64,000 nucleotides of DNA from Candidatus Omnitrophota bacterium (GCA_016783605.1 JADHWG010000002.1:107-64106), one strand, 5' to 3'; counted from the first letter of the stretch, positions 548-20,465 are shown. The notes: a model not told the origin generated them from the sequence alone. A program made the numbers and translations.

Positions 548-720
548 TCAACCTCGTGGGTCTGTCGCAAAACACCTTTTTCTGTCATCCTCGCGAATGC
601 GGGGATCTGTAACATAGTGTATTTCATAGGCTTATAGATCCCCGCATTCGCGAGGATGACATTTTGGGGGTATTTTGCGATAGCTCCCTCGTAGGTTGTG
701 AAACAACCTACGAGGTTGGT
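548..720. repeat. Palindromic element family P2, copy 1. The core is an inverted pair tgtcatcctcgcgaatgcggggatct (583-608) and agatccccgcattcgcgaggatgaca (636-661).
   Basis: Seen in sequence. The flanking imperfect inverted repeats gtctgtcgcaaaacacc and ggtattttgcgatagc, plus outer CCTCGTAGG/CCTACGAGG hairpins, make the whole 170-nt unit a nested palindrome. Track ORF 532-735(-) is a translation artefact of this element. Confidence 0.85.
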
Positions 721-804
721 TTCGGGGGCAGTCAAAAGAAATTCTTGACCTTATGGGTGGTTTTGCTGATAATGTGTGTTGTTTAAAACAGACAGGTGGA
801 TTTT

Positions 805-1422
805 ATGGGCAAGATCAAGGCGATATTTTTTGATTTGGGGAATGTTATTGTTAGGGTGAAACCGGAAGTTTTGGTTGAAGGATTCCAGAAGTGCGGAAGA
901 GTTGTGCCCGAGAGGGTTATTGATTATTTTATGGATTCGGATAACGTCAATAGGTATATGGAAGGGGAGATCTCTTCGTCGCAATTTTATTCCAAAACCC
1001 GCCGGTTTTTTAGGCTGGATATCAAATATCGTGAATTTTATGATTTATGGAACAAAGTTCTCGCGCCATATCCTGAAATGGAAGAGATCATCCGAGATCT
1101 CAAGAAAGATTATCCGGATATCAAGATGATACTTGTTTCCAACACCAACGAGGTTCATTATGACTTTGTGAGGGAAAAGTATAAGATACTGGATCTATTG
1201 GACGGGCATATTACCTCGCATGAAGAAGGTGTGCAGAAACCCGACCCCGAAATATTTGTCCGCGCGCTAAAACTCGCCGGCACGCTCCCGAAAGAGACCT
1301 TTTACACCGATGATCGCGAAGATCTAATAGATGCCGCCAGAGCAATGGGGATCCGAGCGTTTCAATTCCAAGATCACCACAAATTTCGAGCCCAATTAGC
1401 CAAATTCAATATAGAAATCTAA
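805..1422 (+). CDS. HAD-superfamily hydrolase (subfamily IA-like)
   Basis: Track ORF 796-1422. An ATG at 805 with an upstream AGGTGGA is the preferred start. The AIFFDLGNVIV N-terminal motif I (DxG) and the later SNTNE and K...D motifs are typical of HAD phosphatases. Confidence 0.8.
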   Translation: MGKIKAIFFDLGNVIVRVKPEVLVEGFQKCGRVVPERVIDYFMDSDNVNRYMEGEISSSQFYSKTRRFFRLDIKYREFYDLWNKVLAPYPEMEEIIRDLKKDYPDIKMILVSNTNEVHYDFVREKYKILDLLDGHITSHEEGVQKPDPEIFVRALKLAGTLPKETFYTDDREDLIDAARAMGIRAFQFQDHHKFRAQLAKFNIEI

Positions 1423-1430
1423 TTTACTCC

Positions 1431-1520
1431 AAATTCGTAAGGGCACGGCATGCCGTGCCCTTATGCGATCGGTGATTTGTGTGACATAAAGGGCACGGCA
1501 TGCCGTGCCCCTACGAAGTT
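1431..1520. repeat. Compound palindrome of about 90 nt containing two perfect 20-nt palindromes GGGCACGGCATGCCGTGCCC (1441-1460 and 1491-1510)
   Basis: Seen in sequence. The outer arms cgtaagggcacggcatgccgtgcccttatg and cataaagggcacggcatgccgtgcccctacg are reverse complements. The same 20-mer recurs at 43042-43061. The related GGGCACATGCAATGTGCCC recurs at 12678, 38573, 38644 and 42928. Confidence 0.85.
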
Positions 1521-1574
1521 GGAGTGTTGTGGAAGCTGTCACGTTAAGCTTCAAAAAAGGTAGAAAGTATTGAA

Positions 1575-1603
1575 TTGACTGCTTTCCCCATTAGTGATAG
1601 AAT
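1575..1603 (+). promoter_or_regulatory. Sigma70-like promoter (TTGACT-17-TAGAAT) about 140 nt upstream of giant gene 1
   Basis: Read directly: ttgact gctttccccattagtga tagaat. It has the same architecture as the promoters at 34351 and 43530. Confidence 0.5.
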
Positions 1604-1745
1604 AAGTCTTCGTTATGTTAGCCGTTTAAAAATGTAAATACTCCACCACCAACCTACGAGGTTGGTGGTGGGGGTTGGGTTGTTCGTAGGGGCGGGCCTT
1701 GTGTCCGCACGTTAATAATTATAATTTTTTTAGGAGGGAATTGAT

Positions 1746-4700
1746 ATGGGTAATTTTCGAGGGAAATTTTATGTGAAAGCTATCGCGGCGGTTGTCGCGG
1801 CGATCTTTTTGCATCAGCAAATCGCGTGGGCTCAAGGAGGGGCGGCTCCGGCGGCTATGCCTCCGGCGGCGCGCGTGAGTGAAAATGTTGGTGCCGGTCA
1901 AGTGGGGACCGATGTGTGTGACATTGATCTTCCTTACAATCTCGCGCATAGGGATGAAGTTTATACCGGCGCGCGCGAGGAAAAAATAATTCATCTTCAG
2001 GACGCGCATGCTTCGCTCAGCGCGCAGTATTCGCTGGTGAATCTTTTAGACGTTTTAGCGAAAAATTATGACCTTGAATTTATCGCGCTTGAGGGGACTG
2101 AGGGGGTTATTGACACGTCTCTATTAAAAAGTTTTCCGGATAAAGATATTAGAGAAAAAACCGCTGACCTTCTTATGCGGGAAGGGCGGATGAGCGCGGG
2201 TGAGTTTTTTCAAATAACTCGTGACGAAAAAAATATAATGCTCTGTGGAGTCGAGGATAACGAGCTGTATAAAGAGAATCTTGATGGGTTTTGCCAAGTG
2301 ATCGAACAGAGAGAGCCTCTGGTTAAAATGGTGAAGGCGTTTAGAGGGCAAATAGACGCGCTTGAAGAAAAAGTGTATTCGGACGAACTTAGAACGTTCA
2401 TATATAGAGGAAGGGCGCATAAAAACGGGACATTAAACTTTTCCGATTATTGGCGAGAAATGAGCCCGTTTCTTGAGAAATTCGGTATTGAAACCGGCAC
2501 TTTACGTGATATGCCTCTTCTTACCCAATCAATTGAGCTCGAAAGAAAAATAGATTTTGAAAAAGCGAATACCGAAAGAGGCGACCTCATAAGTGACTTA
2601 ACGGGCCGCCTTGAAAAAGACGAATTAAAAGCGCTAGTTCTGGAATCGGTTAATTTTAAGGAACAAAAAGTTTCACCCGCGAATTTTCATAAATATCTTG
2701 AAGAGCTTGCCAGAGAAAACAATATATCCCTCTCAGCGTACAAAAATTTCAGCATGTTCACCGAATACATATCGCTTTACGAATCCGTAGACATATTTAA
2801 TCTCTACAGTGAAGTGGAATCTCTCGAGAAAACTATTCGAGGAAAACTGTACAGAAATGAAGATGAACGCGAGCTGAATAAAATATCCGTTATGACGGAA
2901 CTTCTCCGTGGGCTATACAGCATAGAACTTTCATCGCGCGATTTCGGGTTTTTCGAAGAAACCCGCGAAAAATACGACGCGAAAAAGTTTGCCGCGTTTA
3001 TAAAAGACAAATGCGCTAAGCATAAGGTAACGATTGAAAAAGGATACGATCTTGCCGAGATGCTCGGGGGAATAAACTCCGCCGCCAACTTTTATGAAAC
3101 CGCCGCGAAGCGCGATCGGCTCATGATCCAAAATACGCTGAAACGCATGAAAAGTGAGAAAAAACGTGTCGCGGCGCTTATTACGGGAGGTTATCACACA
3201 AAAGGTCTCACCGAAATAATGAAAGAAAACAAACTTTCATACCTTATCATATCTCCGAAATTTGAAAAAGACGAAGAAAGGCCCTATGTCGCCGTTCTTA
3301 CCGGCAAAAAGAAACCTTACGAGGAGCTTCTAGAATCCGGAAAATACCAGATAATGGCGGCGGCGTGGAACAATCCTAATGACACCCCGGAAAGTCAGAT
3401 TTCAAAAACTGAGGAAATAGTGGCTTTAACCCGGGCAATAAACGATATGACTCAGGAAGACTGGGAAAATAACGGCGAGGAATGGAAAGGTTCGTTTTGT
3501 CCCGGTTCTTCTGTTGAAATTTTTAATGAGGATAAATTTAAAGAACTAATCGAGACTGTGGAAGGAAGAGAAATAGATGGCGCTGTTGTTACGGGATATA
3601 AGGGCGGTGAGCCGCGCGTCGCGCTAAAGCTTAATGAAAAATCCGAGATTCAACGAGTAGAAATTACCGAAAAACACAAGAGAATCTGGGAAAAACGTAC
3701 TGGTAATATTATGCTACATGTGAACCAAGTTTTTTCGATGACAAAATTAAAAACAGAGAGTGACATAGCGGAGTCAGTGGGCAATAAAATCGATAATCCG
3801 ACAATAGATACAGAATGGCAAAAGAGGAATATGATCATACATCCGGCTTTGGTGATTTCGGAAGAAAATATAAACAATACCATCGATCGGATGAGACCCA
3901 CTGTCATAGGGGTGGGACAAGATGAAAATGCGGAACAGAAAAGAATAACCGAAGAAATAAAAAGAGTGCTCAAAATAAAAGGAATTAATGAGGCAGAATT
4001 AAAAGATAAAATCGTTAAGAAATTTATAAACGCGGCTATGGAAGAGCTTAAGAGAAGGAATGAATCTAATCAAACGCCGAACCAAGATGAGCCTTTTGTT
4101 TTGACGTTAGAGAAGATAGAGAAGATTTGCCAAAGTTTAAGGGATGAAGCAGATAGTAGCTCAGTTGGACAGAATCCAGATGACCTGCGTAAGAAAGTAG
4201 AAAGAGCATTTATGGAAATGGGAGCTACGGAAGCATTTCTTAAAAGCGGCGCTGTCGAGAAACAGATACAACTATTAATGAAGATGATCGAGAAAAAAGA
4301 CGAGAAGAGTAACCCTAACGAGGCGAATTCGATATTTGCAAAGCTTGTTTCCAAAGATGAGGCATATTGGAACAATGTCGAAGAAGATATAAAGGGATAT
4401 CAAAAAGAATATAACACTACATATGTGAAAACTTCAAAACCATCAATATTTGAGCAATCTGAATTGGAGCAAACTGAAATAGATTTGGTTCGGGTAGTAA
4501 AAAAAGAAGAGAAGCTTGGGCTTGTTGATAATTCCTTGGTAGATTTTTTTAAAAAACTAAAAGATATGGAATCGGATAACGTATCTACTGAAGCACCGGA
4601 TCAAGTTAAGACGCCGCCTGCCGAGTTTGAAATTAAAGATCATGAAATAGGCTCCCGCGCGTATCCAAAATCAACCAAATTTGTAACAAATGAACCCACC

Positions 4701-7700
4701 CAGACTCAAGAAGATCCGATTGAATCCAAAGACATAAAAAAATCGTTCATGGAAAAAATCGAAGCTCAACTTGTGAGAATGACTTTTACGGCAACGATAT
4801 TTACCGCGCTCATGTTGATAATACTGCGGGGTGTAACACATAATCGAGCCAAAAAGGAAGAAGAGTACGCACCTCTAGTGGTACAAAAAAAAGAATCTGA
4901 CGAAAAATCGGTGGATGAGGCTGACGCTGTGACGGTTAAAAAAGACAACTTTATAAAATCAATTCCGGGAAAAATCGTAAAGTTTATAAAAGACAAAGCC
5001 AATTTGGTTATAAGGCATAAAAATCTGATCATAATGATGTTTGTATCTATCGGTTCGATCGCGGCGATTGCAAACGCGGAGTCTTTTGGATTTGTTCAAA
5101 CGATAGAAAGAGTGTCATCAACACCTCTATTCGCGACGTCAACATTTGGGATGGTAGAACTCATGATGGTGGTGGGGGCCGTAGCTCTCACTGTCTGGGT
5201 GTTTTTGAGTTTGGGCAAAGGAGAAATAGGCGCGGAAAGAAGATTACCTATTATTGAGATACTTCGCAAAGAAACCTGCAAGCTAGATATTATTGTTGCG
5301 GGAGTTTTCGCGTATCAGACCATTATTCAATATATGGCGGACGGTGCTTTTACGAAAGGCGTGTTCCTTTTTGCGATAGCAACTGCCGCTCTTATTTTTT
5401 CCGTATGGACATTCATAAAAGATGGACTGCTTGTAAAAACGGCGGGTGTGGAAAATAGAGAAACAAAGATGATAGAAGGAGATTTGAAATCTGGTGCTGT
5501 TGTAATGACAGTTACAAAAAAAGTTGAGGATGTTCCAGTTGCGGAAGTAACGAGTCGAAAAAAATTACTTTTTGTGCAAAGCAAAAATTGGTTAAAAAGC
5601 AAATTTGCGTTAGCTAAAAAATATAAAGACCTGATATCAGCTCTGTTCGTTTCTTCAATAATAGGCTTAGTGTCAATATCGCAGGCATATGACGGGAGTA
5701 TTGGGTTGAGTCCTTCTTCGATTATGGCGATGGCGGTGTTGTCCGGTTGTACAATAGGTGCGCTGGTATTTTTAATAAGAAGCTTAGATAAAACAAAAAA
5801 AATTAGTGATAAAAAAAACGCTTCTGTAGAAATTCCAAAGATAAGAAATTTCAAAGAATTAAAAGGATACGCGGGAATAAGCATTGTAACTTCGGCGATG
5901 ACGCTTTTAATTGGATATTTTCACAAACCGCTTTGGCAGATATGCTTGGATCTTCCAATGAAACATGAAATATTAGGTTCAATAACGGTTGGAGCGGGAC
6001 TTTTAACAAGCGCGGTCGTGGCGGGAATCGCGATATGGTTTACGTGGATTACACTAGACGCCGCAATACCCATGGGGCTTAAAAAAGCCGGTTCTTTTGT
6101 TAAGGGCATATTCCGTTTTGTAAAGACGTATTTTAGCGTGTTTATTGGGACAGTGTTTGCCGGGACATTGTGGTCGACGGTTGCGCGGGCGGTAAACAAT
6201 TCTGCGAATGTCGTAAGTATATTTGATGTGACCCAAGGAACAAAATTTAGTGTGATTATTCGATCGATACCGCGTAACGTGATCGTGCCGTTCGCTATTG
6301 TGATGATGACGGTTATTACGGCTGTATGGATATTTTCTGCGATTGTAAAGGCGGTTCGTTTGTATAGAGCACAGGAGAGAGGAAAAGTATCCGAAGAAGA
6401 AGTAGGAGAAATTAAGAAAAAACAGAACCGTTTTAATATTCAGGTATTTTCCAATATGGCGTTAATTCTTATCAGTTTTTTTGCGGCAAATAATGTGTCT
6501 TTGACCATGGAATACGCGCTTGTAATTATCCCTTTTGCTATTTTGGGACTATGCGTATATTCAATATATTCCGCGATACATTTTGTGTGCAAGCTTGTGC
6601 AGGATTACAGGAAACCATTAACGGAGCAGAAAAAATCGGAGCGGAAAAACAAAAAGCGGAGCTCAAAAGGAGAGGTTAAAATTTCTCTTCTTACGGGTAT
6701 GGTTTTTATGTTTATCGTGCTTGCTATAGGATGCATAACGCCGAAGGTTAATACAAAATCGGTTTTGGATAAAAGTGTGGCAAAAACGAAGATGGCGGAG
6801 ACGGTTGGGACGCAGAAAATGGATGATTCTAAAAAAATGGTGCCGCGAACAGAAACTGAACCGAAAAAGAAAGAAATTAAGATATGCGGGAATACACCGA
6901 ACGTGCATGACGCGGCGTGTGATGTCATAATACTCAACCCGAGTTATGGCGCGGTACAGGATGAGTGGCCGGATGAGATTTATTTTGATTATTGGGGAGA
7001 CATTACGGGGTATGAGGTTGAAATTATTTTTACGGAACTAGGAAAAAGAGAAAACACAAGAATTGAAATTTTCTTAAAAAACAAGAAATACATCAATATG
7101 AGTTCGGGTGCGGTAACGCCGGATAAAGATGGCGTAGTCAGGTGGAACCCGGCGGCTGTTGAGGGATGGCTTTTCAGAAAGTCAATGGCAAAGGCAAAAG
7201 CGAAATTTATAAAAAATAACGCGGCAATAAGTATTAAATTTCGAGGTATGGACGCGGAAGAGGGGGAAGATCATATAGAAGAAATCCGGTTTGTCAGGAA
7301 AGAAGTTAATAAGTCAAAAGGTGTATCTCGTTCGAAATTATTCACATGGGCGCCGATAATCGCGCTGACTTCATTTATTACGGGGTCGGGGATATTTAAC
7401 ACGGCGCTTGCGGGGGCGGCGGGGCTTGGCTGGATGAATGAGATTGAGGCTATTGCCGTGTCATCTCCATGGGGTGGATTGAGTCTAATGTGTTTATTGT
7501 TTGGGGCTATGTTAGCCGGCGCGGGGGCAATAGCATATATTTTTACCAATCTCTTGAACCTCTTTTCTTCGGAAATGGAAGGAAAAACTCTGCTTAAGGT
7601 GAGTCTGATCTGGATGGTATCAACCGGAGCAATCTTAGGATTATTGGCGAAAATCGGATCGATCGCAATCTGGGTAAACCGGTTTTTTGTTGGTGATATG

Positions 7701-10700
7701 CTTATGTCCTCCGGACTTACGACTATCGGAATGTCGACACTTTTAATCGCGCTCTTTGGGACGGCAATGATATCCGCAGGGTTGGTAATGAAAGGGACGC
7801 ATGATGTGTACTTTCAAAATAAAAAACGTGCTGAGGTGATATTTTCAAGCTTGGGCAGTGCGGCGGGGAGCGGGGTGTTGTATGTTCTGGCGCGCAATTG
7901 GCGGTTAATCGGTAATGCTTTGGAGGTGCTTGTGGTCGGAGGCCCGGCTAATATCGTTTTCGCCGTGGTTATCACGGTTGGCGGTTCCATAGGCACTGTA
8001 CTGTTTGCCGTTGCGACACTTGTGGCTATATCAAAAACGTGGTTTAAACTTGGGGAATTATCTGCCGAGAGAAAGCGTTCGGGTACGGCGCTTTTTACCG
8101 TTATAATGCTCATATTCGGTATTATGTTTTGTTGGGTTCCGGGAGTTGGGGCTAGTGGCGAAAAACCGGAAGATTTACCGGCGGTGAAATATACGGAGCC
8201 GAGAACTCCGGGGAATTATGTAGAACCGCGAGTGCCGGGGATCTATGTAGAACCGCGAACGCCGGGGACTTTTTCCGCGGCGCCGGATTCGGTAACTCCG
8301 AGAACAGATGTCGGGACGGATGAAGAAATTATACCTTTAACGGGGTGGTATCCGGAAACTTACGACGACAGTCAGGGGATTGTTGACGTTTATTGCGGCG
8401 AAGACGGAATATTGAAAATAGTCGCCGATATGAGAGGGCAGGATGATTATAGGCGTCAAGGTGAGGTTTACCGTAATCTTGATGAAGCAACAGATTTTAC
8501 CGGTAAAAAAGAAAGTTTTAAGGTTCGTGTGCCTGAAAAATACGCTTTGAATCAGGAGAATGGTGTCGTGCCGTATATGATGGATGTGAACGGGAATAAG
8601 CAATACGCGGATAGGGTGAAAATTACGCGAGCCGGGGAATGGGTAACTGTCGAGATGGTTCCTATGCCGTATGGGCGCACGCGGTTGAAAGGAAATGCGG
8701 GGAGATTCAAGTGGACGGATCCCGGGTTTGATCCTTCTCTTGGGATAACAAGGGTGGGTATAAAGTTTGTTATTGATGAGAAAAGTACGGATACGTTTAT
8801 TTCGGAGAATCCGGATGGGACTGTCAAAGACGGTTATATTGAAGTTGCGGATATCAGGATCGTGCCGATGGAAGGTGTTGTTCATGAGGCCGAATGGCAG
8901 AATGTTTATAGAGACGAGCCGATTGTTGTTCCGGCAGTAGACGCGGGGACGTTTGTCGCAAATTCAGGGGTGTCTCTTTATCTAAAGACGTATGAACGGG
9001 CAATAGGGACACCTGACGGTGTAACTGCGCATTATGAAGAAACTTTGAATGAATTCAAAAAATTAGCATCACGGGGAGTTAAAAAGGCGAGAATACTTCT
9101 GTGTATAGGATCAAAAAATACAAGCGGGATAGAATTTGATGATAACGATATGCCGATTGGGTTTAAAGATTTTGAAGGAGAGGACCTTAGCGGAGAAGAA
9201 CTTGCGATACTTGATTTTGCAAATCTGATAAGAATCGGTACGGAGACGGATATAGAAATGGCATTAGTTTTGCACAATAAAGATATTACGGAAGCACATC
9301 CCGGTGTTTTTGGCGATGAGGAGAAACGGGCGGCGTTAGTTGCTCTTGACAAGATCCTGCTTGATGGAGCGAAAGAAATGTTGGAGGAAGATGTTTGGGA
9401 ATATTTTGAATATGGGGAAGCACTGAATGAACCGGATGACGCAGGAACACATTCCTGGTATACCCAGGAATTCGTAAAGGCAGAGAATAAAATGATTAGG
9501 GACGATATCGGAAAACCCGTGACTCTCGGTCCGGCAAAAAGAGAACATATAGGTAACTGGCTCCTTTCGGATTCGGAGATGCTTAAACCAGGAGATATGT
9601 TCCAGATTCACGTATATAACGATAATCTTGATGAACTTCTCGCGGAGCTCAGGAGAAACATAGGTGAATTTGAGTGGCCGGAAGGTGTAACGATTTGTTT
9701 TGGTGAAGCGCAGGGGAATATCGGATCAGATTCAGTTATATCTGAAGCGTTTCCTGCCGCGCATAGATCCGGTGCGAAAAGAATATATTTTTGGCGTGAC
9801 AACCGGCTCTCTCCGAAATATACGGTGGATGAGGATGAATATCAAAGTACCGCACAATACATGATGAGCGCGGATTATGATACTGATGTGCCGGATGAAG
9901 TGGATGATACCGAACTACCTATAGCTCGTGCCGCTGTTAGCGATCAGACAGTAGATGAAGGTGTAGAGATAATCTTTAACGCCGGCGAGTCAACTGATGA
10001 AGGTGGAGAAATAGAAACTTTCAGTTGGGATTTTGACGATTATGATGGCATACAGGAAGACGCGGGTACGGTAACGGCAACACACACCTACGATGAACCA
10101 GGAGTTTACTTGGTAACTTTAACCGTAACTGATACCGCGGGAAATTCCGGAACGGATACCTTAACGATAACAGTGAATGAAGCTGTCGTGGATGACGATA
10201 CGGATGTAACGAATGAGACGGACGTGGATGTGACAGATGAGACGGACGAAGGTGTGACGGATGAGACGGACGGGGATGTGACAGACAAAGCTGACGATAC
10301 GGATACAAATAAAGACGACGTTGATAAACCCGGAAGTACGCTTGATACTTCTGACGGAGGGTGTTATATCGGTACAGCGTGGTTTAATGATAAATCTGAT
10401 AAATCGAAAGATATGAAACGTGAAAACACCCCGGGCGCGGAAGTGCTTGCGCGTGAAGGCGTGGGAAATACGCTTTTTGATAAGGTGATAAATTGGTGGG
10501 AGGGTTTAAAAACTTCGGTTAAAAAGCATTTTAACTTGGTTGTTATGATAATGTTTGGAGGAGCGCTTTTCTCGACTATCGCGCGTGCGGGAGAGCCGGG
10601 TGCTTTTGGGGAGGTGACAAAACAGCTTTTCGCGGTGTCGACGTTCGGGAAAGTGGAACTTGCGGTGGCGTCTCTTTCCGCCGCTGTCGCGATTGTAACT

Positions 10701-12503
10701 ATGATTTTAGCTTTTTGCAGAATAAATACGATAGAAGATGTATCTTTTCAGGAAAAGCCTGTCGTCAAAAAAATACGGATGGTAAATAACGTACTTTTGG
10801 GTGTTAACATTGGTATGGGTATAATGAAGGCGGCGAGGGGCGGCGGTTTTACCGCCGGAGTATCTCTTTTTTGTATATCAACGCTTTTGCTTGTGATTTC
10901 ACTTTTGATGTTGAAAGAGAAATTTGTGGACGCGCCTTTGGCTGGCAAACTCAACAAGGCTCAAGCTCGACGTTGGAATGCTATCGAATACTCCCGCGTA
11001 AAAACACCGATCAAAGTTCAATTTTGGAAGGTTTTTGAGGGAGCGAAAAAATGGATTCGTTCCGTTAAAAAGCGTTTTGACGTGTTTATTATGACATTAT
11101 TTGGAGTTGTGTTGAGTGCGGCTATTGCCAGTGCTAAATCTGGAGAAACTTTTGCTGAAGCATGGACATTCGCGGAAATAATAGTAGGAATTATTGGAGG
11201 ATTCGCTATAGCGGGAACGTTTCTTATATTGTTGGCTGTAAATTACATTATTAGACGCAACTATGAGGAAAGAGTAAAAGAAACTGAATTTAAAGTTGCG
11301 CTTGGATTGTCGGAGAAAATGTATGCGGACATCGTTAGAAATGGTCATAAGAATTTATTGAAAGAAATAACAAGCGATGTTGAAATAATACATCTTGAAG
11401 AAAGCGTTAGCCGGGAAGTCATGCAGGAAGAATTTAATGAAAAGACGAGGGGTCGAAGAGTTGTAGGTGCGATCGTGGATCCGACCGTGCTTGAAGTAAT
11501 TAACGGCATTGATGGAAACGACAATTCGCATAGCAGAAATCTTGATAAAAGTATGCGAATAATAGAAGATTTCATCAAAACCGCGAAAAAAGAGATCACG
11601 CCCCTTATGGCGCCGAAAGCCGGGTTTTTTAAACTGAAAGGGCTCACACAAAAGGCGATCAAGGAAGATTTTGATAAATTAGAAAAATTAACTAAAAAGA
11701 AAACAAAAGAGTGGGATGGCAAAATACAAGTGTTAGTCAGAACTTTGCCAGCGGAGAGTCTCCAGCTTGTGGATAAAGGTGCGTATCATGTTCCGGTGAA
11801 TAAGTGGCATAGAGCGGTTGTTGGGGAAAATAGAGTGAGTATAGACGCGAAACGTTTAGCTAAGGGAGGAGGAGGTCTAATTGTAGGTTCTAATCGCAAA
11901 TACATAAGTGTGTCAGCGTATGATCTCGCGGATTTGAGGTTTATCGCGAACGCGATCAAAGATTTAGGTGTTGATAAAGAAAAAGCGTCTCAGTTTATTC
12001 ACGTGAGACTGCGCAACAATAACGTGCGGACACGGGAAGATCTGCAAAAGTATATGGAAAAAACCGGACTAAGCGGATATCTTTATCCGAAAAATGTGGA
12101 TATTGTTTCCGAGCAGGAAGAAAAAGATATGACGCTTGAGAAAATTCTTTTTAAGGTGAAACATATGTTCTCCGGAGCGATGATTTCTGTTAGCAATGAT
12201 CAAATTTTTGTCGGCAATACGAGAGACTTGAATCTTTCTTCTGCGGATAAAATTACGCTAAGCCGCGAAAAAGCGCCAAAATTCGTTCAGATGAGAGGAG
12301 AGGGAATTGTCTCTCAGCTTCTTCTCGCTCTGGTTGAGTTTAGCGCCCGGGAAAAAATACCGGCGAGTTTGGGAAAAATAACGCTTGATCCGAATAAAAC
12401 GGGGCTTAAGATATACATATATGTTCCGAAAATAAAAAAAGCGGATTATGACGCGATACTTGACGTTATAAAGAATTATGAGAAGATGATGATGAGTGTT
12501 TAA
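1746..12503 (+). CDS. Giant multi-domain membrane protein, 3585 aa (paralog 1): N-terminal anchor, conserved N-module, two multi-TM clusters, CBM-like beta-sandwich, GH-A-like TIM barrel, PKD domain, acidic T/D-rich repeats, conserved C-module
   Basis: Single uninterrupted track ORF with an AGGAGGG RBS 7 nt upstream. The N-terminus MGNFRGKFYVKAIAAVVAAIFLHQQIAWAQGG is a hydrophobic anchor. Hydrophobic helices are clustered at about nt 4740-8170 and 10510-11270. The PKD signature WDFDDYDG...HTYDEPGVYLVTLTVTDTAGN lies at about 9990-10150. NEP and GE motifs lie in a barrel-like segment at about 8930-9810. The N- and C-terminal 500 and 430 aa are homologous to the ORF at 43636-59250. Confidence 0.85.
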   Translation: MGNFRGKFYVKAIAAVVAAIFLHQQIAWAQGGAAPAAMPPAARVSENVGAGQVGTDVCDIDLPYNLAHRDEVYTGAREEKIIHLQDAHASLSAQYSLVNLLDVLAKNYDLEFIALEGTEGVIDTSLLKSFPDKDIREKTADLLMREGRMSAGEFFQITRDEKNIMLCGVEDNELYKENLDGFCQVIEQREPLVKMVKAFRGQIDALEEKVYSDELRTFIYRGRAHKNGTLNFSDYWREMSPFLEKFGIETGTLRDMPLLTQSIELERKIDFEKANTERGDLISDLTGRLEKDELKALVLESVNFKEQKVSPANFHKYLEELARENNISLSAYKNFSMFTEYISLYESVDIFNLYSEVESLEKTIRGKLYRNEDERELNKISVMTELLRGLYSIELSSRDFGFFEETREKYDAKKFAAFIKDKCAKHKVTIEKGYDLAEMLGGINSAANFYETAAKRDRLMIQNTLKRMKSEKKRVAALITGGYHTKGLTEIMKENKLSYLIISPKFEKDEERPYVAVLTGKKKPYEELLESGKYQIMAAAWNNPNDTPESQISKTEEIVALTRAINDMTQEDWENNGEEWKGSFCPGSSVEIFNEDKFKELIETVEGREIDGAVVTGYKGGEPRVALKLNEKSEIQRVEITEKHKRIWEKRTGNIMLHVNQVFSMTKLKTESDIAESVGNKIDNPTIDTEWQKRNMIIHPALVISEENINNTIDRMRPTVIGVGQDENAEQKRITEEIKRVLKIKGINEAELKDKIVKKFINAAMEELKRRNESNQTPNQDEPFVLTLEKIEKICQSLRDEADSSSVGQNPDDLRKKVERAFMEMGATEAFLKSGAVEKQIQLLMKMIEKKDEKSNPNEANSIFAKLVSKDEAYWNNVEEDIKGYQKEYNTTYVKTSKPSIFEQSELEQTEIDLVRVVKKEEKLGLVDNSLVDFFKKLKDMESDNVSTEAPDQVKTPPAEFEIKDHEIGSRAYPKSTKFVTNEPTQTQEDPIESKDIKKSFMEKIEAQLVRMTFTATIFTALMLIILRGVTHNRAKKEEEYAPLVVQKKESDEKSVDEADAVTVKKDNFIKSIPGKIVKFIKDKANLVIRHKNLIIMMFVSIGSIAAIANAESFGFVQTIERVSSTPLFATSTFGMVELMMVVGAVALTVWVFLSLGKGEIGAERRLPIIEILRKETCKLDIIVAGVFAYQTIIQYMADGAFTKGVFLFAIATAALIFSVWTFIKDGLLVKTAGVENRETKMIEGDLKSGAVVMTVTKKVEDVPVAEVTSRKKLLFVQSKNWLKSKFALAKKYKDLISALFVSSIIGLVSISQAYDGSIGLSPSSIMAMAVLSGCTIGALVFLIRSLDKTKKISDKKNASVEIPKIRNFKELKGYAGISIVTSAMTLLIGYFHKPLWQICLDLPMKHEILGSITVGAGLLTSAVVAGIAIWFTWITLDAAIPMGLKKAGSFVKGIFRFVKTYFSVFIGTVFAGTLWSTVARAVNNSANVVSIFDVTQGTKFSVIIRSIPRNVIVPFAIVMMTVITAVWIFSAIVKAVRLYRAQERGKVSEEEVGEIKKKQNRFNIQVFSNMALILISFFAANNVSLTMEYALVIIPFAILGLCVYSIYSAIHFVCKLVQDYRKPLTEQKKSERKNKKRSSKGEVKISLLTGMVFMFIVLAIGCITPKVNTKSVLDKSVAKTKMAETVGTQKMDDSKKMVPRTETEPKKKEIKICGNTPNVHDAACDVIILNPSYGAVQDEWPDEIYFDYWGDITGYEVEIIFTELGKRENTRIEIFLKNKKYINMSSGAVTPDKDGVVRWNPAAVEGWLFRKSMAKAKAKFIKNNAAISIKFRGMDAEEGEDHIEEIRFVRKEVNKSKGVSRSKLFTWAPIIALTSFITGSGIFNTALAGAAGLGWMNEIEAIAVSSPWGGLSLMCLLFGAMLAGAGAIAYIFTNLLNLFSSEMEGKTLLKVSLIWMVSTGAILGLLAKIGSIAIWVNRFFVGDMLMSSGLTTIGMSTLLIALFGTAMISAGLVMKGTHDVYFQNKKRAEVIFSSLGSAAGSGVLYVLARNWRLIGNALEVLVVGGPANIVFAVVITVGGSIGTVLFAVATLVAISKTWFKLGELSAERKRSGTALFTVIMLIFGIMFCWVPGVGASGEKPEDLPAVKYTEPRTPGNYVEPRVPGIYVEPRTPGTFSAAPDSVTPRTDVGTDEEIIPLTGWYPETYDDSQGIVDVYCGEDGILKIVADMRGQDDYRRQGEVYRNLDEATDFTGKKESFKVRVPEKYALNQENGVVPYMMDVNGNKQYADRVKITRAGEWVTVEMVPMPYGRTRLKGNAGRFKWTDPGFDPSLGITRVGIKFVIDEKSTDTFISENPDGTVKDGYIEVADIRIVPMEGVVHEAEWQNVYRDEPIVVPAVDAGTFVANSGVSLYLKTYERAIGTPDGVTAHYEETLNEFKKLASRGVKKARILLCIGSKNTSGIEFDDNDMPIGFKDFEGEDLSGEELAILDFANLIRIGTETDIEMALVLHNKDITEAHPGVFGDEEKRAALVALDKILLDGAKEMLEEDVWEYFEYGEALNEPDDAGTHSWYTQEFVKAENKMIRDDIGKPVTLGPAKREHIGNWLLSDSEMLKPGDMFQIHVYNDNLDELLAELRRNIGEFEWPEGVTICFGEAQGNIGSDSVISEAFPAAHRSGAKRIYFWRDNRLSPKYTVDEDEYQSTAQYMMSADYDTDVPDEVDDTELPIARAAVSDQTVDEGVEIIFNAGESTDEGGEIETFSWDFDDYDGIQEDAGTVTATHTYDEPGVYLVTLTVTDTAGNSGTDTLTITVNEAVVDDDTDVTNETDVDVTDETDEGVTDETDGDVTDKADDTDTNKDDVDKPGSTLDTSDGGCYIGTAWFNDKSDKSKDMKRENTPGAEVLAREGVGNTLFDKVINWWEGLKTSVKKHFNLVVMIMFGGALFSTIARAGEPGAFGEVTKQLFAVSTFGKVELAVASLSAAVAIVTMILAFCRINTIEDVSFQEKPVVKKIRMVNNVLLGVNIGMGIMKAARGGGFTAGVSLFCISTLLLVISLLMLKEKFVDAPLAGKLNKAQARRWNAIEYSRVKTPIKVQFWKVFEGAKKWIRSVKKRFDVFIMTLFGVVLSAAIASAKSGETFAEAWTFAEIIVGIIGGFAIAGTFLILLAVNYIIRRNYEERVKETEFKVALGLSEKMYADIVRNGHKNLLKEITSDVEIIHLEESVSREVMQEEFNEKTRGRRVVGAIVDPTVLEVINGIDGNDNSHSRNLDKSMRIIEDFIKTAKKEITPLMAPKAGFFKLKGLTQKAIKEDFDKLEKLTKKKTKEWDGKIQVLVRTLPAESLQLVDKGAYHVPVNKWHRAVVGENRVSIDAKRLAKGGGGLIVGSNRKYISVSAYDLADLRFIANAIKDLGVDKEKASQFIHVRLRNNNVRTREDLQKYMEKTGLSGYLYPKNVDIVSEQEEKDMTLEKILFKVKHMFSGAMISVSNDQIFVGNTRDLNLSSADKITLSREKAPKFVQMRGEGIVSQLLLALVEFSAREKIPASLGKITLDPNKTGLKIYIYVPKIKKADYDAILDVIKNYEKMMMSV
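8195..8275 (+). repeat. Three tandem 27-nt coding repeats (EPRxPGxYV) inside giant gene 1
   Basis: Seen in sequence: gtagaaccgcgagtgccggggatctat and gtagaaccgcgaacgccggggact, following ccgagaactccggggaattat. Confidence 0.7.
10190..10330 (+). repeat. Tandem degenerate 27-nt coding repeats (VTDETDxxx) giving an acidic T/D-rich linker after the PKD domain
   Basis: Seen in sequence: gtgacagatgagacggacgaaggt, gtgacggatgagacggacggggat, gtgacagacaaagctgacgat. Confidence 0.7.
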
Positions 12504-12753: not shown

Positions 12754-12984
12754 ATGCCTACAAAAAAACCACGAATAAATGTAGTGCTTGAACCAAGATT
12801 GTACAAAATCTTGGTAAGAGTGGCACATGGAGAAGGGATTTCTGTATCTTTGGCGGCAAGAGATTTGATAAAGGATGCTGTTGAACTTTACGAAGATAGG
12901 TACTGGGCAAAAGTCGCTGAGGAAAGAGAGAAAACTTTTTCTGACAAGAAGGCTTTAACCCATAAGGAAGTTTGGGATCAGTGA
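12754..12984 (+). CDS. Ribbon-helix-helix (CopG/RelB-like) antitoxin
   Basis: ATG at 12754 inside track ORF 12634-12984, giving 76 aa. MPTKKPRINVVLEPRLYKILVRVAHGEGISVSLAARDLIKDAV is a typical RHH antitoxin N-terminus. Its stop overlaps the start of the downstream RelE-like gene. Confidence 0.7.
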   Translation: MPTKKPRINVVLEPRLYKILVRVAHGEGISVSLAARDLIKDAVELYEDRYWAKVAEEREKTFSDKKALTHKEVWDQ

Positions 12985-13286
12985 AATACACTGTATTTTA
13001 TCACCAGGATGTAAAACAGAAAGATCTTTCGTCTATCCCGGAAAATTTAAAGCAAAGAATTCGTAGGGCTATAGAAGAAAAATTAATGTTGGATCCTGAA
13101 AACTACGGTACTCCTCTAAGGAAAGGTTTACATGGGTACCGAAAATTGCGAGTAGGAGATTATCGGGTTATTTACAGCATTCGGAAAAGTAGTGCTAAGA
13201 TTAAAATTTTCAAAATTGGACACAGAAAAGAAGTATATAAGAATGCGCATACACGTGTAAAAGAAGTGTCTTACCTAACAAAATGA
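12981..13286 (+). CDS. relE: RelE/ParE-family toxin
   Basis: Track ORF 12972-13286. GTG 12981 overlaps the antitoxin stop as gTGA; TTG 12972 is an alternative start. LRKGLHGYRKLRVGDYRVIYSIRKSSAKIKIFKIGHRKEVY matches the conserved RelE/ParE core (RVGDYRVIY...I..IGHRK). Confidence 0.75.
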   Translation: MKYTVFYHQDVKQKDLSSIPENLKQRIRRAIEEKLMLDPENYGTPLRKGLHGYRKLRVGDYRVIYSIRKSSAKIKIFKIGHRKEVYKNAHTRVKEVSYLTK

Positions 13287-13298
13287 AACTTCATCTCC

Positions 13299-13490
13299 AA
13301 AAATCCCACCTCGTAGGTGGAAAAATTTCACCTACGAGGTGGGATTTTTGGCGCAAGAAGGGACTGTCGCAAAATACCCCAAAATGTCATCCTCGCGAAA
13401 GCGGGGATCTATAAGTCTAAGAAACACTATATGTTACAGATCCCCGCGTTCGCGAGGATGACAGAAAAAGGTATTTTGCGACAGACCCAA
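13299..13490. repeat. Palindromic element family P2, copy 2 (core arms 13385-13410 and 13438-13463), preceded by a CCTCGTAGG hairpin at 13299-13348
   Basis: Seen: ggactgtcgcaaaatacccc...tgtcatcctcgcgaaagcggggatct...agatccccgcgttcgcgaggatgaca...ggtattttgcgacagaccc. Track ORF 13317-13526 is an artefact. Confidence 0.85.
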
Positions 13491-13552
13491 GAAGAGAAAA
13501 ATTCCGTAGTATTTTTTTTTAAGTGAGAGGAATATGCTATAATTAACAAATT

Positions 13553-14606: not shown

Positions 14607-14790
14607 CATAACCGCTGTTCCACCTCGTAGGTGGAACAGAGCTCCACCTACGAGGTGAAACAGCTGACATAACCGATTGTTCCATTGTTCCACCTACGAG
14701 GTGGAAAAGATGTTGGAAATTTGGGTTTTAAACGTATAATAAGAGTGGGAATTGGGCGTGAGAGTGGAATAATAAACAAGTTGGTAGATC

Positions 14791-16340: not shown

Positions 16341-16547
16341 GTGAAAATGGGAAAGATATTGAGTCTTATGGTTGGAACGATAGTTGTGATAGGAGGGGTT
16401 ATACTGCTTATTAACTGGTGGGGTGACCTTATTTATCTTTTGAAGGGATGTATTCCGATCTTGCTCATAATCGGCGGCGGGATCTCGATTTTGGCCGGGA
16501 TAAGTGAGATTAAAGATACAAAAAAAATAAAGCCGGCATCCAAATAA
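16341..16547 (+). CDS. Small hydrophobic membrane protein (two predicted TM helices), function unknown
   Basis: 68-aa track ORF. A GGAGGTG RBS lies 6 nt upstream of the ATG. A terminator-like hairpin follows at about 16563-16642. Confidence 0.45.
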   Translation: MKMGKILSLMVGTIVVIGGVILLINWWGDLIYLLKGCIPILLIIGGGISILAGISEIKDTKKIKPASK

Positions 16548-16643
16548 AAAAAACGCCGCCAGTGTATAATGTATGGAAAGGGGCAAGGGAGAAAAGTCGT
16601 TATTTGGATCTTTGGGCGTAATTTTCTTCTTTGCCCTTTTGTT

Positions 16644-16686
16644 TATTCGCGAGGATGACAGAAAAAGGTGTTTTGCGACAGACCCT
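16644..16686. repeat. Truncated (right-half) copy of palindromic element family P2
   Basis: Seen: ttattcgcgaggatgacagaaaaaggtgttttgcgacagaccc, immediately upstream of the ORF at 16701. Confidence 0.7.
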
Positions 16687-16700
16687 AAGAAGGTTTTATT

Positions 16701-17255
16701 ATGATATATTTTTGCGGGATAATATTAGTTATCGGTCTCTTTTTTCAAGGATGTTCAACCAACACGGCTCAAGAGGAAAAAAAGATCTTGGCGCATGACG
16801 CTTCTTTTCAGAAACTTTTGAATAAGCGCGATTCTCTTCAAAATGAAGCGAATCAGAAGGCTGAACTTTTTCGTAAAAAGGGGAAAGATATAGATAATAA
16901 GATCAAAATTATGCAAAAAGAAAAAGTGCGGCTGAAGAAAGAATATTTGTCGGTGGAAGAGAAGATCATGAGGCAGCTTCAACCGGAAAAGAGAGCCTTG
17001 CAAAAAACTCTTAGGGAACTAACCTATCAATACAAACAAAAGGCGGATGCCGTTCGGAGTATTGACGGAGATATTAACGAGATCAACACGCTGATAAAAA
17101 AGAAAGAGAGTTTGTCTTTGACGCAGGAAGAGATGCGGATCTGGAATGAACGATTGGCCGCTCTCATAGAAAAAAAAGAAACGGTAATTACGGAAAAAAA
17201 CAAGGTAAAGAAGGAAATAGAAATAACGAAGTTAAAGATCAAGGTTTTTAGGTAG
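16701..17255 (+). CDS. Putative coiled-coil lipoprotein
   Basis: 184-aa track ORF. The N-terminus MIYFCGIILVIGLFFQGCSTN is a signal peptide with a lipobox-like FFQGC. The remainder is K/E-rich heptad-like sequence. Confidence 0.5.
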   Translation: MIYFCGIILVIGLFFQGCSTNTAQEEKKILAHDASFQKLLNKRDSLQNEANQKAELFRKKGKDIDNKIKIMQKEKVRLKKEYLSVEEKIMRQLQPEKRALQKTLRELTYQYKQKADAVRSIDGDINEINTLIKKKESLSLTQEEMRIWNERLAALIEKKETVITEKNKVKKEIEITKLKIKVFR

Positions 17256-17257
17256 GG

Positions 17258-17290: not shown

Positions 17291-17339
17291 CATCAGGGCG
17301 GGGAGACCCCGCGCCCCTACGAATATTAAGGAGAAAAAG

Positions 17340-18890: not shown

Positions 18891-18936
18891 GACGTTTTGA
18901 GTCGGGTCAAATACAACAATCGTATATTGCCCCCGT

Positions 18937-19001
18937 CAAACAACCTCGTAGGTTGAACCTCGTAGGTTGAACCTACGAGGTTCAACCTACGAGGTTGTTT
19001 G
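18937..19001. repeat. Nested double hairpin of the CCTCGTAGG/CCTACGAGG motif family (P1)
   Basis: Seen: caaacaacctcgtaggttgaacctcgtaggttgaacctacgaggttcaacctacgaggttgtttg. The same 9-mer palindrome pair closes hairpins at about 1646, 13299, 14452, 14617, 34268, 35970, 36003, 38561, 39995, 40146, 43382, 60493 and 61968. Confidence 0.85.
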
Positions 19002-19045
19002 GCGGGTTGCTCTCCGATTCCATCTTTTTTAAAATCTGCAATAAC

Positions 19046-20416
19046 ATGATAAGATCTTATAAAGAAACACTTAAGGAGCTTGACTCGTTTACGAACTATG
19101 AGAATATCGGGTTTGGCGATATTAGAGAAGAATTTAATCTTGATAAATTGCGTCAAGTTCTGAAAAAGATCGGTAATCCCGAGCGGAATTACCGTGTTAT
19201 CCATATCGCGGGGACAAAAGGGAAAGGTTCTATTTGTTGTTTTGTCTCTTCCGTTTTAAGAGAAGCCGGGATGAGTACCGGGCTTTTTCTTTCACCGCAC
19301 ATAATCACGCCAAGAGAACGAATTCAAGTAAACGGCGAAATTATCAGCGAAAATGAGTTCGCCGAAATTTTTAATTATTTGATGGAGTATCTTGATCAGC
19401 CGGCAAATGAGAAATATACGTTTTTTGAAATGTATACGATGGTCGCGTTTGAATATTTCAGCCGTAAAAAAGTAGATTTTGCGGTTATTGAAGTTGGTAT
19501 GGGTGGACGGCTTGACGCGACTAACGTGGCGCGCGGAGAATTTTGCGGAATAAGTCCGATAAGTTATGATCATACTCAGGTTTTGGGAAACTCTATTCGC
19601 GCGATCGCCGAGGAAAAATCGGCGATCATTAAACCGGGCGCGTATTGTGTGAGTTCTCCTCAGCGGCCGGACGCGGAGCGTGTTATAAAAAAAAGGTGTT
19701 TGGAAAATAACGCCGAATTGGTTTTAGCCGGTAGAGATCTAAAATATGAGGTCGATAGTGTATCCGAAGGAGGGAGTTTTTTTGATTTCGGCGGTGTCTA
19801 TGAAAGTTATAAAAATGTCAAAACGTCTCTTGCGGGAATTTTTCAAGTTGATAATGCCGTAACGGCTTTAGGAATATGTGAAAAAGTGTTGTCCGGCATG
19901 CCCGGGCTGGGGAATATTTTAAAACGAGGTATAAAAAACGCGTATATTCCCGGCAGGATGGAAGTTTTGTGTAAAAAACCGTATTTTGTGGCGGATGGGG
20001 CGCAAAACGCGGATAGTGCCGCCAATTTAAAAAAATCTGTTGAACAGATCTTTAAATATGATAAGTTGATACTCCTATTGGGGATGAGTCGAGACAAGGA
20101 TATTGAGGGTGTTTGCCGGCTTTTGGGACCATTTGCCGAAAAAATAGTGTTAACGCGCGCTTTGAGCGCGCGAGCGGCGGACCCCGGCGTGATAAGAGGC
20201 CATATCGAAAATAAACAGGTTAAAGTTACCGCCAATGTGACAGACGGTGTGAAAGAGGCGTTTAATCTCGCCGGCAAAAATGATATGATACTTGCAGCCG
20301 GTTCTTTTTTTGTTGTCGCCCAGGCGCGATGTATTGTGAAGGGGAGTTTTGCATATAGTTTGGGGCTGTCGCAAAATACCCACCCATGTCATCCTCGCGA
20401 ACGCGGGGATCTATAA
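19046..20416 (+). CDS. folC: Folylpolyglutamate synthase / dihydrofolate synthase FolC
   Basis: Track ORF 18995-20416. Internal ATG 19046 is preferred because the upstream TTG lies inside a repeat hairpin. It has the Mur-ligase P-loop HIAGTKGKGS. The last 12 codons and the stop are supplied by the P2 repeat element at 20366-20465. Confidence 0.85.
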   Translation: MIRSYKETLKELDSFTNYENIGFGDIREEFNLDKLRQVLKKIGNPERNYRVIHIAGTKGKGSICCFVSSVLREAGMSTGLFLSPHIITPRERIQVNGEIISENEFAEIFNYLMEYLDQPANEKYTFFEMYTMVAFEYFSRKKVDFAVIEVGMGGRLDATNVARGEFCGISPISYDHTQVLGNSIRAIAEEKSAIIKPGAYCVSSPQRPDAERVIKKRCLENNAELVLAGRDLKYEVDSVSEGGSFFDFGGVYESYKNVKTSLAGIFQVDNAVTALGICEKVLSGMPGLGNILKRGIKNAYIPGRMEVLCKKPYFVADGAQNADSAANLKKSVEQIFKYDKLILLLGMSRDKDIEGVCRLLGPFAEKIVLTRALSARAADPGVIRGHIENKQVKVTANVTDGVKEAFNLAGKNDMILAAGSFFVVAQARCIVKGSFAYSLGLSQNTHPCHPRERGDL

Positions 20417-20465
20417 GCCTAAGAAACACAATATGTTATAGATCCCCGCGTTCGCGAGGATGACA
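20366..20465. repeat. Palindromic element family P2, copy 3 (core arms 20387-20412 and 20440-20465)
   Basis: Seen: gctgtcgcaaaatacccaccc atgtcatcctcgcgaacgcggggatct ... agatccccgcgttcgcgaggatgaca. Confidence 0.85.

Follow-up and report, generated by a model that had tools for sequence, protein, structure and literature searches.

A lineage-specific palindromic repeat of a Candidatus Omnitrophota bacterium is built around an inverted pair of hairpins resembling the Ssn nuclease motif

Introduction

P2 is a palindromic repeat that an earlier note had pointed out in a stretch of 64,000 nucleotides from a Candidatus Omnitrophota bacterium (GCA_016783605.1, JADHWG010000002.1:107-64106; hereafter, the window), and its closest described counterparts are hairpin motifs recognized as single-stranded DNA (ssDNA). 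According to the sections of Chenal et al. (2025, Nat Commun, PMC11893778) drawn on throughout this study, SsnA, a 94-aa single-domain GIY-YIG protein (cd10448), binds and cuts the NTS, a 28-nt motif (CGTCATTCCCGCGMAVGCGGGAATCYRG) that encompasses the Neisseria dRS3 repeat and whose generalized form is the Ssn-related motif (SRM). Cutting is limited to ssDNA and to the NTS strand, a few nt 5′ of the motif, and the motif is neither bound nor cut as RNA or as double-stranded DNA; the motif positions critical for both cleavage and binding by the N. meningitidis SsnA are GTC 5′ of the palindrome and C directly 3′ (PMC11893778). SRMs flank ssn genes in 71% of cases, and the NTS-ssnA-NTS arrangement resembles an insertion sequence (IS); the role demonstrated for the Ssn nuclease in Neisseria is restriction of transforming ssDNA (PMC11893778).

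The dRS3 repeats and the NIMEs that contain them have been known since 2000, and the hairpin together with its nuclease since 2025 (PMC11893778). NIMEs, described as Neisseria-specific, are intergenic dRS3-RS-dRS3 units, single or in tandem, whose inverted 20-bp hairpin repeats enclose a short spacer (19-214 bp) that is richer in AT; the arrays were proposed to be recombination promoters and are used as attachment sites by an IS110-type phage integrase (PMC1797815).

We consider it likely, though well short of certain, that P2 represents an SRM-class DNA repeat that is non-coding, nonautonomous, and confined to its lineage, and whose core is an inverted pair of hairpins corresponding to Ssn-type nuclease sites. 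It is probably an element comparable to miniature inverted-repeat transposable elements (MITEs) and REPINs. Built as it is on a hairpin motif already known from most bacterial phyla, P2 is the local form of an established type of DNA repeat and probably not a new RNA. What is added here is the Omnitrophota host, a composite architecture with fixed polarity, marks of insertion, and the finding that convergent hairpin pairs are usual across phyla.

Copies and limits of P2

The P2 family is real, with three full copies, one half copy, and one variant with a replaced centre in the window, far above chance. The shared sequences described in the earlier note are present and non-random: the core 13-mer GTCATCCTCGCGA has 12 matches in the window at ≤2 mismatches against 1.10 expected (12 was reached in 0 of 100 shuffles), and the flank 17-mer TATTTTGCGACAGACCC has seven at ≤3 mismatches against 0.17 expected. 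Repeat detection paired 554-669 (copy A) with 13377-13492 (copy B) as reverse complements at 92% over 116 nt and 13360-13474 (copy B) with 20362-20476 (copy C) at 90% identity, and the 41 nt of half copy D (16645-16685) are 100% complementary to 558-598 in copy A. Alignment that included the flanks set the limits of the element at GGGnCTGTCGCAAAATAC ... GTrTTTTGCGACAGACCC, giving the following copies:

558..688, − strand (inverted relative to B and C): copy A, full; outer repeats at 558-575 and 671-688; SRM hairpins at 583-610 (+) and 634-661 (−); flanked by the NTase gene (166-474, −) on one side and the HAD gene (805-1422, +) on the other
13360..13488, + strand: copy B, full; SRM hairpins at 13385-13412 (+) and 13436-13463 (−); between parE and era
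20362..20490 (right end approximate), + strand: copy C; left outer repeat intact, right degenerate; SRM hairpins at 20387-20414 (+) and 20438-20465 (−)
16645..16685, + strand: half copy D; right-arm portion that runs outward from the right SRM tetraloop through the outer repeat; between the MamI-like gene (16347-16547) and the lipoprotein gene (16701)
43103..43198, − strand: variant E; outer repeats, linkers, and GTCATCCTCGCG stems kept; centre swapped for CTTGTCCGGCAAAGCCGGACAAG

Pattern searches and blastn both recover every one of these copies. The number and kinds of copies are those listed earlier, but the coordinates had to be trimmed. The intervals first given for copies A and B (548-720 and 13299-13490) do hold them, together with neighbouring palindromes of another family (CAACCTCGTAGGTTG, CCACCTCGTAGGTGG); that given for copy C (20366-20465) lies inside the copy and covers the inner part alone, since the copy continues to ∼20490 in a degenerate right outer repeat. 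The interval given for the variant (43009-43239) is indeed an element bounded by terminal inverted repeats (TIRs), with ends TGTATATTGTCACAATTCAG / CTGAATTGTGACAATATACA, but P2 variant E itself occupies only 43103-43198 inside it; the element also encloses a GGGGCACGGCATGCCGTGCCC palindrome, and the repeats are therefore nested. Two further P2-related sites were found beyond the window, specifically one hairpin pair just upstream of it and one copy in another flank context in another metagenome (L135).

Anatomy of P2

P2 is an imperfect palindrome ∼130 bases long with four types of parts: outer repeat, linker, arm, and centre. The outer inverted repeat, 18 nt of GGGnCTGTCGCAAAAyAC with its complement, constitutes a pair of TIRs; copies A, B, D, and E have kept it, and copy C has it intact on the left only. 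Inside it lies a side-specific linker of 7-8 nt (CCCCAAAA on one side and CCTTTTTC on the other), followed by the arm, a 28-nt hairpin (TGTCATCCTCGCGAAnGCGGGGATCTrT) that is present in two inverted copies per element. The conserved centre measures 19 nt between the 30-nt complementary arms, or 23 nt between the 28-nt SRM matches. The 30-nt inner arms of each copy are 97-100% complementary to each other (100% in copy C), and in variant E the substituted centre CTTGTCCGGCAAAGCCGGACAAG forms one perfect 19-bp hairpin. The hairpin, not the ends, is the most conserved part of P2.

Each arm forms an 8-bp hairpin (ATCCTCGC/GCGGGGAT) with a GAAn loop, and its stem mismatch reads T.G on the strand that carries GTCAT and C.A on the opposite strand. 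The loop-closing sequence GCGAAnGC resembles mini-hairpins of the d(GCGAAGC) type, which we take to be unusually stable in DNA, and half copy D begins exactly within the tetraloop of its own hairpin. The two arms are not identical: one ends in CTGTAAC and the other in CTATAAG, and the copies, which retain both arms, the linkers, and the centre at 90-92% identity, also keep this polarity and therefore descend from copying of the whole element.

The core hairpin and the Ssn-related motif

The published SRM search pattern (HGTCWYN(0-2)YYVSBRHN(0-5)WNVSBRGN(0-2)RNCYNB; PMC11893778) has nine matches in the window, against 0.12 expected and a maximum of two in first-order Markov simulations. Six of these are the two arms of copies A, B, and C, and the other three lie at 22151-22361. 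Read as TGTCAT-CCTCGC-GAAn-GCGGGG-ATC, the P2 arm has both the GTC that precedes the palindrome on its 5′ side and the C that follows it on the 3′ side. The core gtcatcctcgcga-N-gcggggatc, which the earlier note had described as conserved, does not belong to this genome alone: it is the NTS/SRM hairpin of many bacterial phyla, a relative of Neisseria dRS3, and only the flanks and centre of P2 are specific to the lineage.

The likeness to SRMs extends to the 5′ GTCAT, the 8-bp GC-rich stem, the GNNN loop, the 3′ C, and agreement with the degenerate pattern, as well as to occurrence in multiple copies spread widely across phyla and, elsewhere, next to or on both sides of small GIY-YIG genes. P2 is likewise enriched over shuffled sequence, and, with the exception of copy C, which shares 55 nt with the 3′ end of folC, its copies lie between genes. 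P2 differs in that its stem has a fixed T.G (CCTCGCG/GCGGGG) and in that its hairpins form a fixed inverted pair within a 130-bp element that is bounded by its own outer inverted repeats, keeps a conserved centre, and has duplicated bases at its flanks; furthermore, searches of the 64-kb window, the 9 kb upstream, and the loci of relatives revealed no ssn gene, and the phylum Omnitrophota is not named in the sections of the SRM report drawn on here (PMC11893778).

The 23-nt spacer of P2 and the ∼98-nt spacers of two further units in the window fit the 19-214 bp layout described for the NIMEs of Neisseria (PMC1797815). However, the 20-bp dRS3 repeat ATTCCCNNNNNNNNGGGAAT is not matched by the P2 arms, which read ATCCTC-N8-GGGGAT and therefore fail the exact consensus; the P2 spacer is one conserved 23-nt sequence and not one of many RS families, and there are no long arrays in this window. 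The two further units, of which only the hairpin at 22334-22361 is an exact dRS3 match (ATTCCC-N8-GGGAAT), are:

22028..22383, + strand: two tandem NIME-like units, SRM(+) - ∼98-nt spacer - SRM(−), at 22030-22181 and 22213-22364, 84% alike
22028-22053 (TTCAT variant), 22151-22178 (−), 22211-22238 (+), and 22334-22361 (−): hairpins of the NIME-like units, in the mnmE-folE gap

In a scan of one genome per species, in which 120 stretches were listed so that counts are lower bounds, the exact 24-mer GTCATCCTCGCGAANGCGGGGATC was found in at least 120 genome stretches from many phyla, against a chance estimate of ∼0.02; hosts among the matches listed were Patescibacteria, Pseudomonadota, Chlorobi, Bacteroidota, Hydrogenedentota, Abditibacteriia, Endomicrobium, Babeliales, Anaerolineae, Acidobacteriota, and Spirochaetota. 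At most of the loci listed, the hairpin is followed after 10-50 nt by an inverted partner of the type CTGGATTCCCGCcttCGCGGGAATGAC, the Neisseria dRS3 form. Adjacent SRM pairs were convergent, with the GTCAT ends outward, in 35 of 43 cases among the matches listed (median gap 21 nt), which is the layout of P2. The same 24-mer also lies within longer repeats that have conserved, lineage-specific left flanks of 45 nt in metagenome-assembled genomes (MAGs) of Hydrogenedentota, Abditibacteriia, and Anaerolineae (L024/L039/L041; L045/L054/L055/L082; L061/L081/L099), and composite elements like P2 therefore seem to be common. The SRM core (GTCATYCYCGCGNANGCGGGRATC) was additionally present in at least 120 viral or proviral contigs of IMG/VR (L151-L270), some of them with many copies (e.g., 13 in L167).

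Small open reading frames (ORFs) adjoining SRMs were recognized with a locally built GIY-YIG profile in five of the listed stretches (L008, L115, L098, L069, and L001), and four of the five were confirmed by Pfam as single-domain GIY-YIG proteins; those of L008, L115, and L069 match PF01541 and have 85-112 aa. In the unclassified MAG L069, the GIY-YIG gene (4431-4685) lies between SRM(+) 4364-4388 and SRM(−) 4714-4738, at distances of 43 and 29 nt, so that 4364-4738 is a compact SRM-ssn-SRM unit. Its hairpins are convergent, as they are in the gene-less pairs, and the short pairs therefore look like gene-less derivatives of such units.

Structural selection on the hairpin and the question of an RNA

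The SRM hairpin is under structural selection. Among 39 distinct SRMs that were not selected with our own search pattern, the 8-bp stem was 98% paired, with compensatory changes in five of the eight pairs, and G2, T3, C4, A5, and C25 were invariant. Stem pair 9/20 was T.G eight times and C.A never, while the pattern permits both, which points to folding on the strand that carries GTCAT.

The earlier note had left room for a structured RNA family, and a 3′-end stabilizer, a terminator, or a small RNA from the long hairpin would be such RNAs. Every copy lies in or beside a transcribed intergenic region, in a genome with almost all of its genes on the + strand. The complete element, folded as single-stranded DNA, is very stable, with energies between −46 and −51 kcal/mol and z between −13 and −15 (copy B, −51.2 kcal/mol and z −15.1), and the stems of the small hairpins covary. 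Against an RNA, however, stand several results. Rfam searches of the window returned two tRNAs only at the gathering score, none for P2, and at E ≤ 1 the matches around P2 were sub-threshold, mostly to miRNA-precursor families with a few weak others, so that nothing in Rfam corresponded to P2 above noise. No T-run follows the element, a terminator scan of the window does not pick it up, its copies stand in both orientations relative to transcription, and related hairpins lie in frame inside a giant ORF, which argues against a dedicated RNA gene. Compensatory changes in the stems, which had been taken as the sign of RNA function, were found in the small hairpin (five of eight pairs), but in the long stem just two of 49 predicted pairs had changed on both sides, one of which we count as informative, among three full copies that differ too little from one another for covariation to show. 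Finally, SsnA leaves the RNA form of the motif unbound, and the motif is cut as ssDNA and not as RNA (PMC11893778). We regard an RNA role as very improbable, and the claim of a structured RNA family was not borne out; an RNA role is less likely than an SRM-class DNA repeat.

Insertion marks and effects on genes

Copy A interrupts a CAACCTCGTAGGTTG palindrome and has TCGT on both sides (554-557 and 689-692), between ...CAACCTCGT and TCGTAGGTTG... Removal of P2 and one TCGT from this site gives CAACCTCGTAGGTTG-TGAAA-CAACCTACGAGGTTG, a perfect hairpin with a 15-bp stem that belongs to a family with unbroken members at other sites of the window. On both flanks, copy B carries AAGAA (5 bp), the flanks of copy C are unreadable in this respect, and the copy in L135 has no duplication. 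Of the features that the earlier note would take as pointing to transposition as DNA, TIRs were present, and the flanking duplications were not of one fixed length.

Several genes and gene calls carry P2 sequence, as previously proposed. The folC ORF (18995-20416) enters copy C by 55 nt and stops there, so that P2 supplies its last 18 codons and TAA stop; FolC ends in ...ARCIVKGSFAYSLGLSQNTHPCHPRERGDL in the window and in ...ARRIVNAI in the relative at 75% MnmE identity. The P2 sequence ATGACAGAAAAAGGTrTTTTGCGACAGACC translates to MTEKG[I/V]LRQT and generates spurious ORFs, among them ORF 16631-16798 upstream of the lipoprotein gene, whose 5′ end is provided by half copy D. In annotation, ORFs of the MTEKG[IV]LRQT type and the FolC tail should accordingly be read as repeat-derived.

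Distribution in the species and its relatives

P2 was restricted to this lineage among the sequences compared. Outside this Omnitrophota species, blastn against every locus examined matched only the 24-30 nt core, and neither SRMs nor the P2 outer repeat occurred in 12-21 kb of syntenic contigs from relatives whose MnmE is 75% and 62% identical, where the gene order era-mgtE-mamI-x-purH-folC-mnmE-folE is kept. The closest relatives (MnmE 84% identical) have spacers that cannot be aligned with the window; there, a hairpin pair was present at a different site only, and the folC-mnmE spacer held other palindromes. The intergenic spacers of the window are greatly expanded relative to those of relatives, as gene-table coordinates illustrate:

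folC-mnmE spacer: 156-177 nt in the window; 10-19 nt in the relatives at 75% and 62% MnmE identity
mnmE-folE spacer: 515 nt in the window; 11-90 nt in the same relatives (L130 and L131)

Divergent SRM pairs, with the GTCAT ends inward, an 8-nt gap, and no P2 outer repeats, were seen in this organism 63-126 nt upstream of window position 1 (L145, 9070-9133) and in its 84% relative (L127, 4595-4658). Three short contigs of the same organism (L122, L146, and L147) begin inside repeats, as expected of a multi-copy element. Look-ups of FolE, iPGM, MNT, HAD, and MgtE returned the same strain in several samples only and no variants differing in the presence of P2; an exact look-up of Era had no match, probably owing to a differing called start codon.

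A metagenome scan with a P2-specific pattern returned seven loci, of which only L135 (JACKQG010273027.1) is a true P2 and L134, from another metagenome, is a plausible relative with the same outer repeat and a different inner hairpin class; the rest are about what chance would give, since the pattern is estimated to have ∼3-4 chance matches. Compared with window positions 12972-13500, L135 is ∼99.8% identical over 590 nt on the parDE side and all of copy B, and the identity stops exactly at the right end of copy B, beyond which the two are unrelated; the junction reflects a structural variant, or else assembly has joined the locus to another P2 copy. Beyond P2, the L135 sequence codes for an HTH-type protein not present in the window.

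A break at the exact edge of a copy is also what one would expect if P2 were a static recombination or protein-binding site, comparable to NIME/dRS3 arrays, with copies spread by recombination and gene conversion. The dRS3-RS-dRS3-like tandem units at 22028-22383 fit such a site, as do the ComEA and ComEC genes of the window (39604-42640; ComEA with Pfam HHH_3), by which machinery for ssDNA uptake is present. However, recombination leaves unexplained how copy A broke a palindrome with a target duplication, the window has no integrase or recombinase gene, and the L135 junction could be an assembly join of two P2 copies. We judge a recombination-site role improbable and, like the RNA role, less likely than an SRM-class DNA repeat.

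Mode of spread

The designation of P2 as a nonautonomous element was upheld: near-identical copies occupy unrelated intergenic sites, have no coding capacity, are absent from the syntenic loci of relatives, and in one case are flanked by a 4-bp duplication, with no transposase or nuclease gene nearby. Genes for ssn were sought in the window with a regular expression, with YhbQ in phmmer followed by a locally built GIY-YIG hidden Markov model (HMM), and with Pfam on unassigned ORFs; none came to light. Across the window, the 9 kb that precede it, and the loci syntenic to it in relatives, Pfam scans and tables likewise revealed no Y1 transposase, DDE transposase, or recombinase gene, and no autonomous parent IS with P2 ends was found in the window, L145, or the relatives.

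If P2 is an SRM-class repeat, its spread could proceed as follows. When one strand is exposed in replication, repair, or DNA uptake, each arm would fold into its 8-bp hairpin on the GTCAT strand, and an Ssn-type nuclease, presumably encoded elsewhere in the genome, would nick 5′ of each hairpin, once per strand, on the outer sides of the pair. The pair would act as a gene-less derivative of an SRM-ssn-SRM unit, as a MITE does with respect to its IS or a REPIN to its RAYT, and P2 would be copied to new intergenic sites with a duplication of 4-5 bp. Such a nuclease, and not a TIR-dependent transposase, would then be what moves P2, and the element may still be active. Side effects on the host would be passive, specifically spurious ORFs, the replaced folC stop, longer intergenic spacers, and break points in recombination or assembly.

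Several observations weigh against this account. A GIY-YIG gene was detected neither in the window and the 9 kb before it nor at the syntenic loci in relatives (local HMM, E ≤ 1; Pfam on unassigned ORFs), and we know of no organism in which transposition by an Ssn nuclease has been shown. Between each hairpin and the outer repeat lie 7-8 nt, which places the repeat farther out than the cut site reported for SsnA; an ordinary transposase that depends on TIRs would suit this arrangement better. The duplications at the flanks are unequal in length (4 vs 5 bp) and lacking in L135; divergence is 8-10% between the copies but ∼0.2% between strain-level flanks; and only three full copies were seen, so that the description of P2 as high-copy, as well as any current activity, is unproven. 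In addition, covariation of the hairpin alone cannot separate ssDNA from RNA.

The outer repeat is the main unexplained feature of P2 and the main support for the view that P2 is an ordinary MITE, in which a DDE-type transposase would recognize the 18-nt outer TIRs and make a staggered cut of 4-5 bp, the SRM pair being cargo or the site on which an older MITE was built. The outer repeats are conserved in every copy except on the degenerate right side of C, duplications of 4 and 5 bp are present, L134 combines the same outer repeat with another inner hairpin class, and variant E retains the outer repeats but loses the 3′ halves of its SRMs. Against these stand the lack of a transposase gene, and of any longer element with P2 ends, in the window, L145, and relatives, a peak of conservation at the hairpin and not at the ends, and an estimate of ∼3-4 chance matches for the pattern that found L134. 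The convergent hairpin pair, moreover, recurs in many phyla with unrelated flanks, so that the pair is the common denominator. An ordinary MITE is, on this evidence, an unlikely description of P2, and an SRM-class repeat remains the reading that we prefer.

A bolder version of that reading is that the inverted SRM pair is the replicative unit of a GIY-YIG/ssDNA mobile system, the counterpart of a REPIN, that P2 carries real traces of its transposition, and that the outer repeat marks the local nuclease cut. The traces in question are the copies of fixed polarity, the 4-5 bp duplications, the insertion in the apex of a hairpin, and the absence from relatives. We offer this version as a speculation that is more probably wrong than right; if true, Ssn nucleases would be domesticated or active transposases of a new mechanistic class, and the occurrence of the same hairpin in nearly every bacterial phylum and in many viral contigs would be explained.

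Relation to other repeat systems and implications

With REPs, REPINs, and BIMEs, P2 shares an inverted doublet of short, imperfectly palindromic hairpins that can also fold as one long hairpin, and with the REPIN/RAYT system a nonautonomous state, presumably served in trans by a single-copy nuclease gene located between the same hairpins, at the level of ssDNA. It differs from REPIN/RAYT in its flank (GTCAT vs GTAG) and in the putative enzyme (GIY-YIG vs HUH Y1 transposase); no RAYT or Y1_Tnp match was found among the scanned ORFs of the window or in the Pfam tables of the syntenic contigs. REP/RAYT had first been suggested by the doublet layout and was ruled out by the GTCAT flank in place of GTAG and by the lack of a Y1 transposase.

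P2 resembles MITEs, for example the Correia elements of Neisseria, in its length (∼130 bp), its TIRs, its short flanking duplications, its intergenic location, and its generation of spurious ORFs and altered gene ends. It differs in that we know of no parent IS with P2 ends and in that its most conserved part is an internal hairpin pair common to unrelated bacteria. In elements of the IS200/IS605 family, hairpins are likewise recognized in ssDNA and cleavage occurs at a set distance outside the hairpin; their two hairpins share a strand and their insertion creates no target duplication, whereas the P2 hairpins are on opposite strands and duplications were seen. The P2 stem also resembles type I-E CRISPR repeats, a likeness that we take to be superficial; a CRISPR array was ruled out by the arrangement of the hairpins as inverted pairs at scattered loci, with no regular direct repeats.

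The placement of P2 brings a previously unannotated repeat of a candidate phylum into the SRM/Ssn ssDNA nuclease system. To what is known of that system, it adds that convergent pairs are usual and oriented as around the nuclease gene, that lineages wrap such pairs in their own longer palindromes, and that these composite elements leave insertion marks and can rewrite gene ends such as the folC stop; related hairpins can lie in frame in giant genes. P2 also offers a test case for whether Ssn nucleases mobilize their own recognition sites.

Other repeats and genes in the window

The window encodes two giant ORFs, one of 3585 aa with PKD domains (1746-12503) and one of 5204 aa with an ARMT1-like domain (43636-59250). 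SRM-like hairpins of the type TGTCATCCCGG...CCGGGATCT are in frame in the latter at 48224-48260 (−), 48331-48355 (+), 51916-51952 (+), and 52178-52224 (−), where they translate as ERDPGYFPSENSGMTS, AVIPVEEPGSI, SVIPEFAEGEYPGS, and LDPGSSPASSAGFGRDDK; insertions of repeats therefore seem to be tolerated within the giant gene. A further hairpin family (GAGGGGTCG..CGACCCCTCATCCTGAGC..GAAGGATCTCT) has CTCAT instead of GTCAT and a tandem G.A in its stem, and occurs as an inverted pair inside the giant ORF (44395-44546) and as single units on either side of mlaF (27549-27602 and 28446-28510).

Other palindromic families of the window are CAACCTCGTAGGTTG and CCACCTCGTAGGTGG; GGGCACGGCATGCCGTGCCC; and CCCGCCGAAGGCGGGTCCGCCTTCGGCGG, with example sites at 1645-1669, 14607-14707, 18932-19006, 34272-34296, 36001-36044, and 39994-40168. 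Inverted repeats of 105 nt at 23129-23233 and 24807-24911, 98% complementary, bracket a DUF212 gene and a LysM/YkuD gene, and the segment between them could be invertible or mobile. The gene at 16347-16547, between mgtE and the lipoprotein gene, encodes 66 aa with a weak Pfam match to MamI and is conserved in the relatives L130 and L131. Toxin-antitoxin pairs in the window comprise ParDE, HicAB, MNT/HepT, and Fic.

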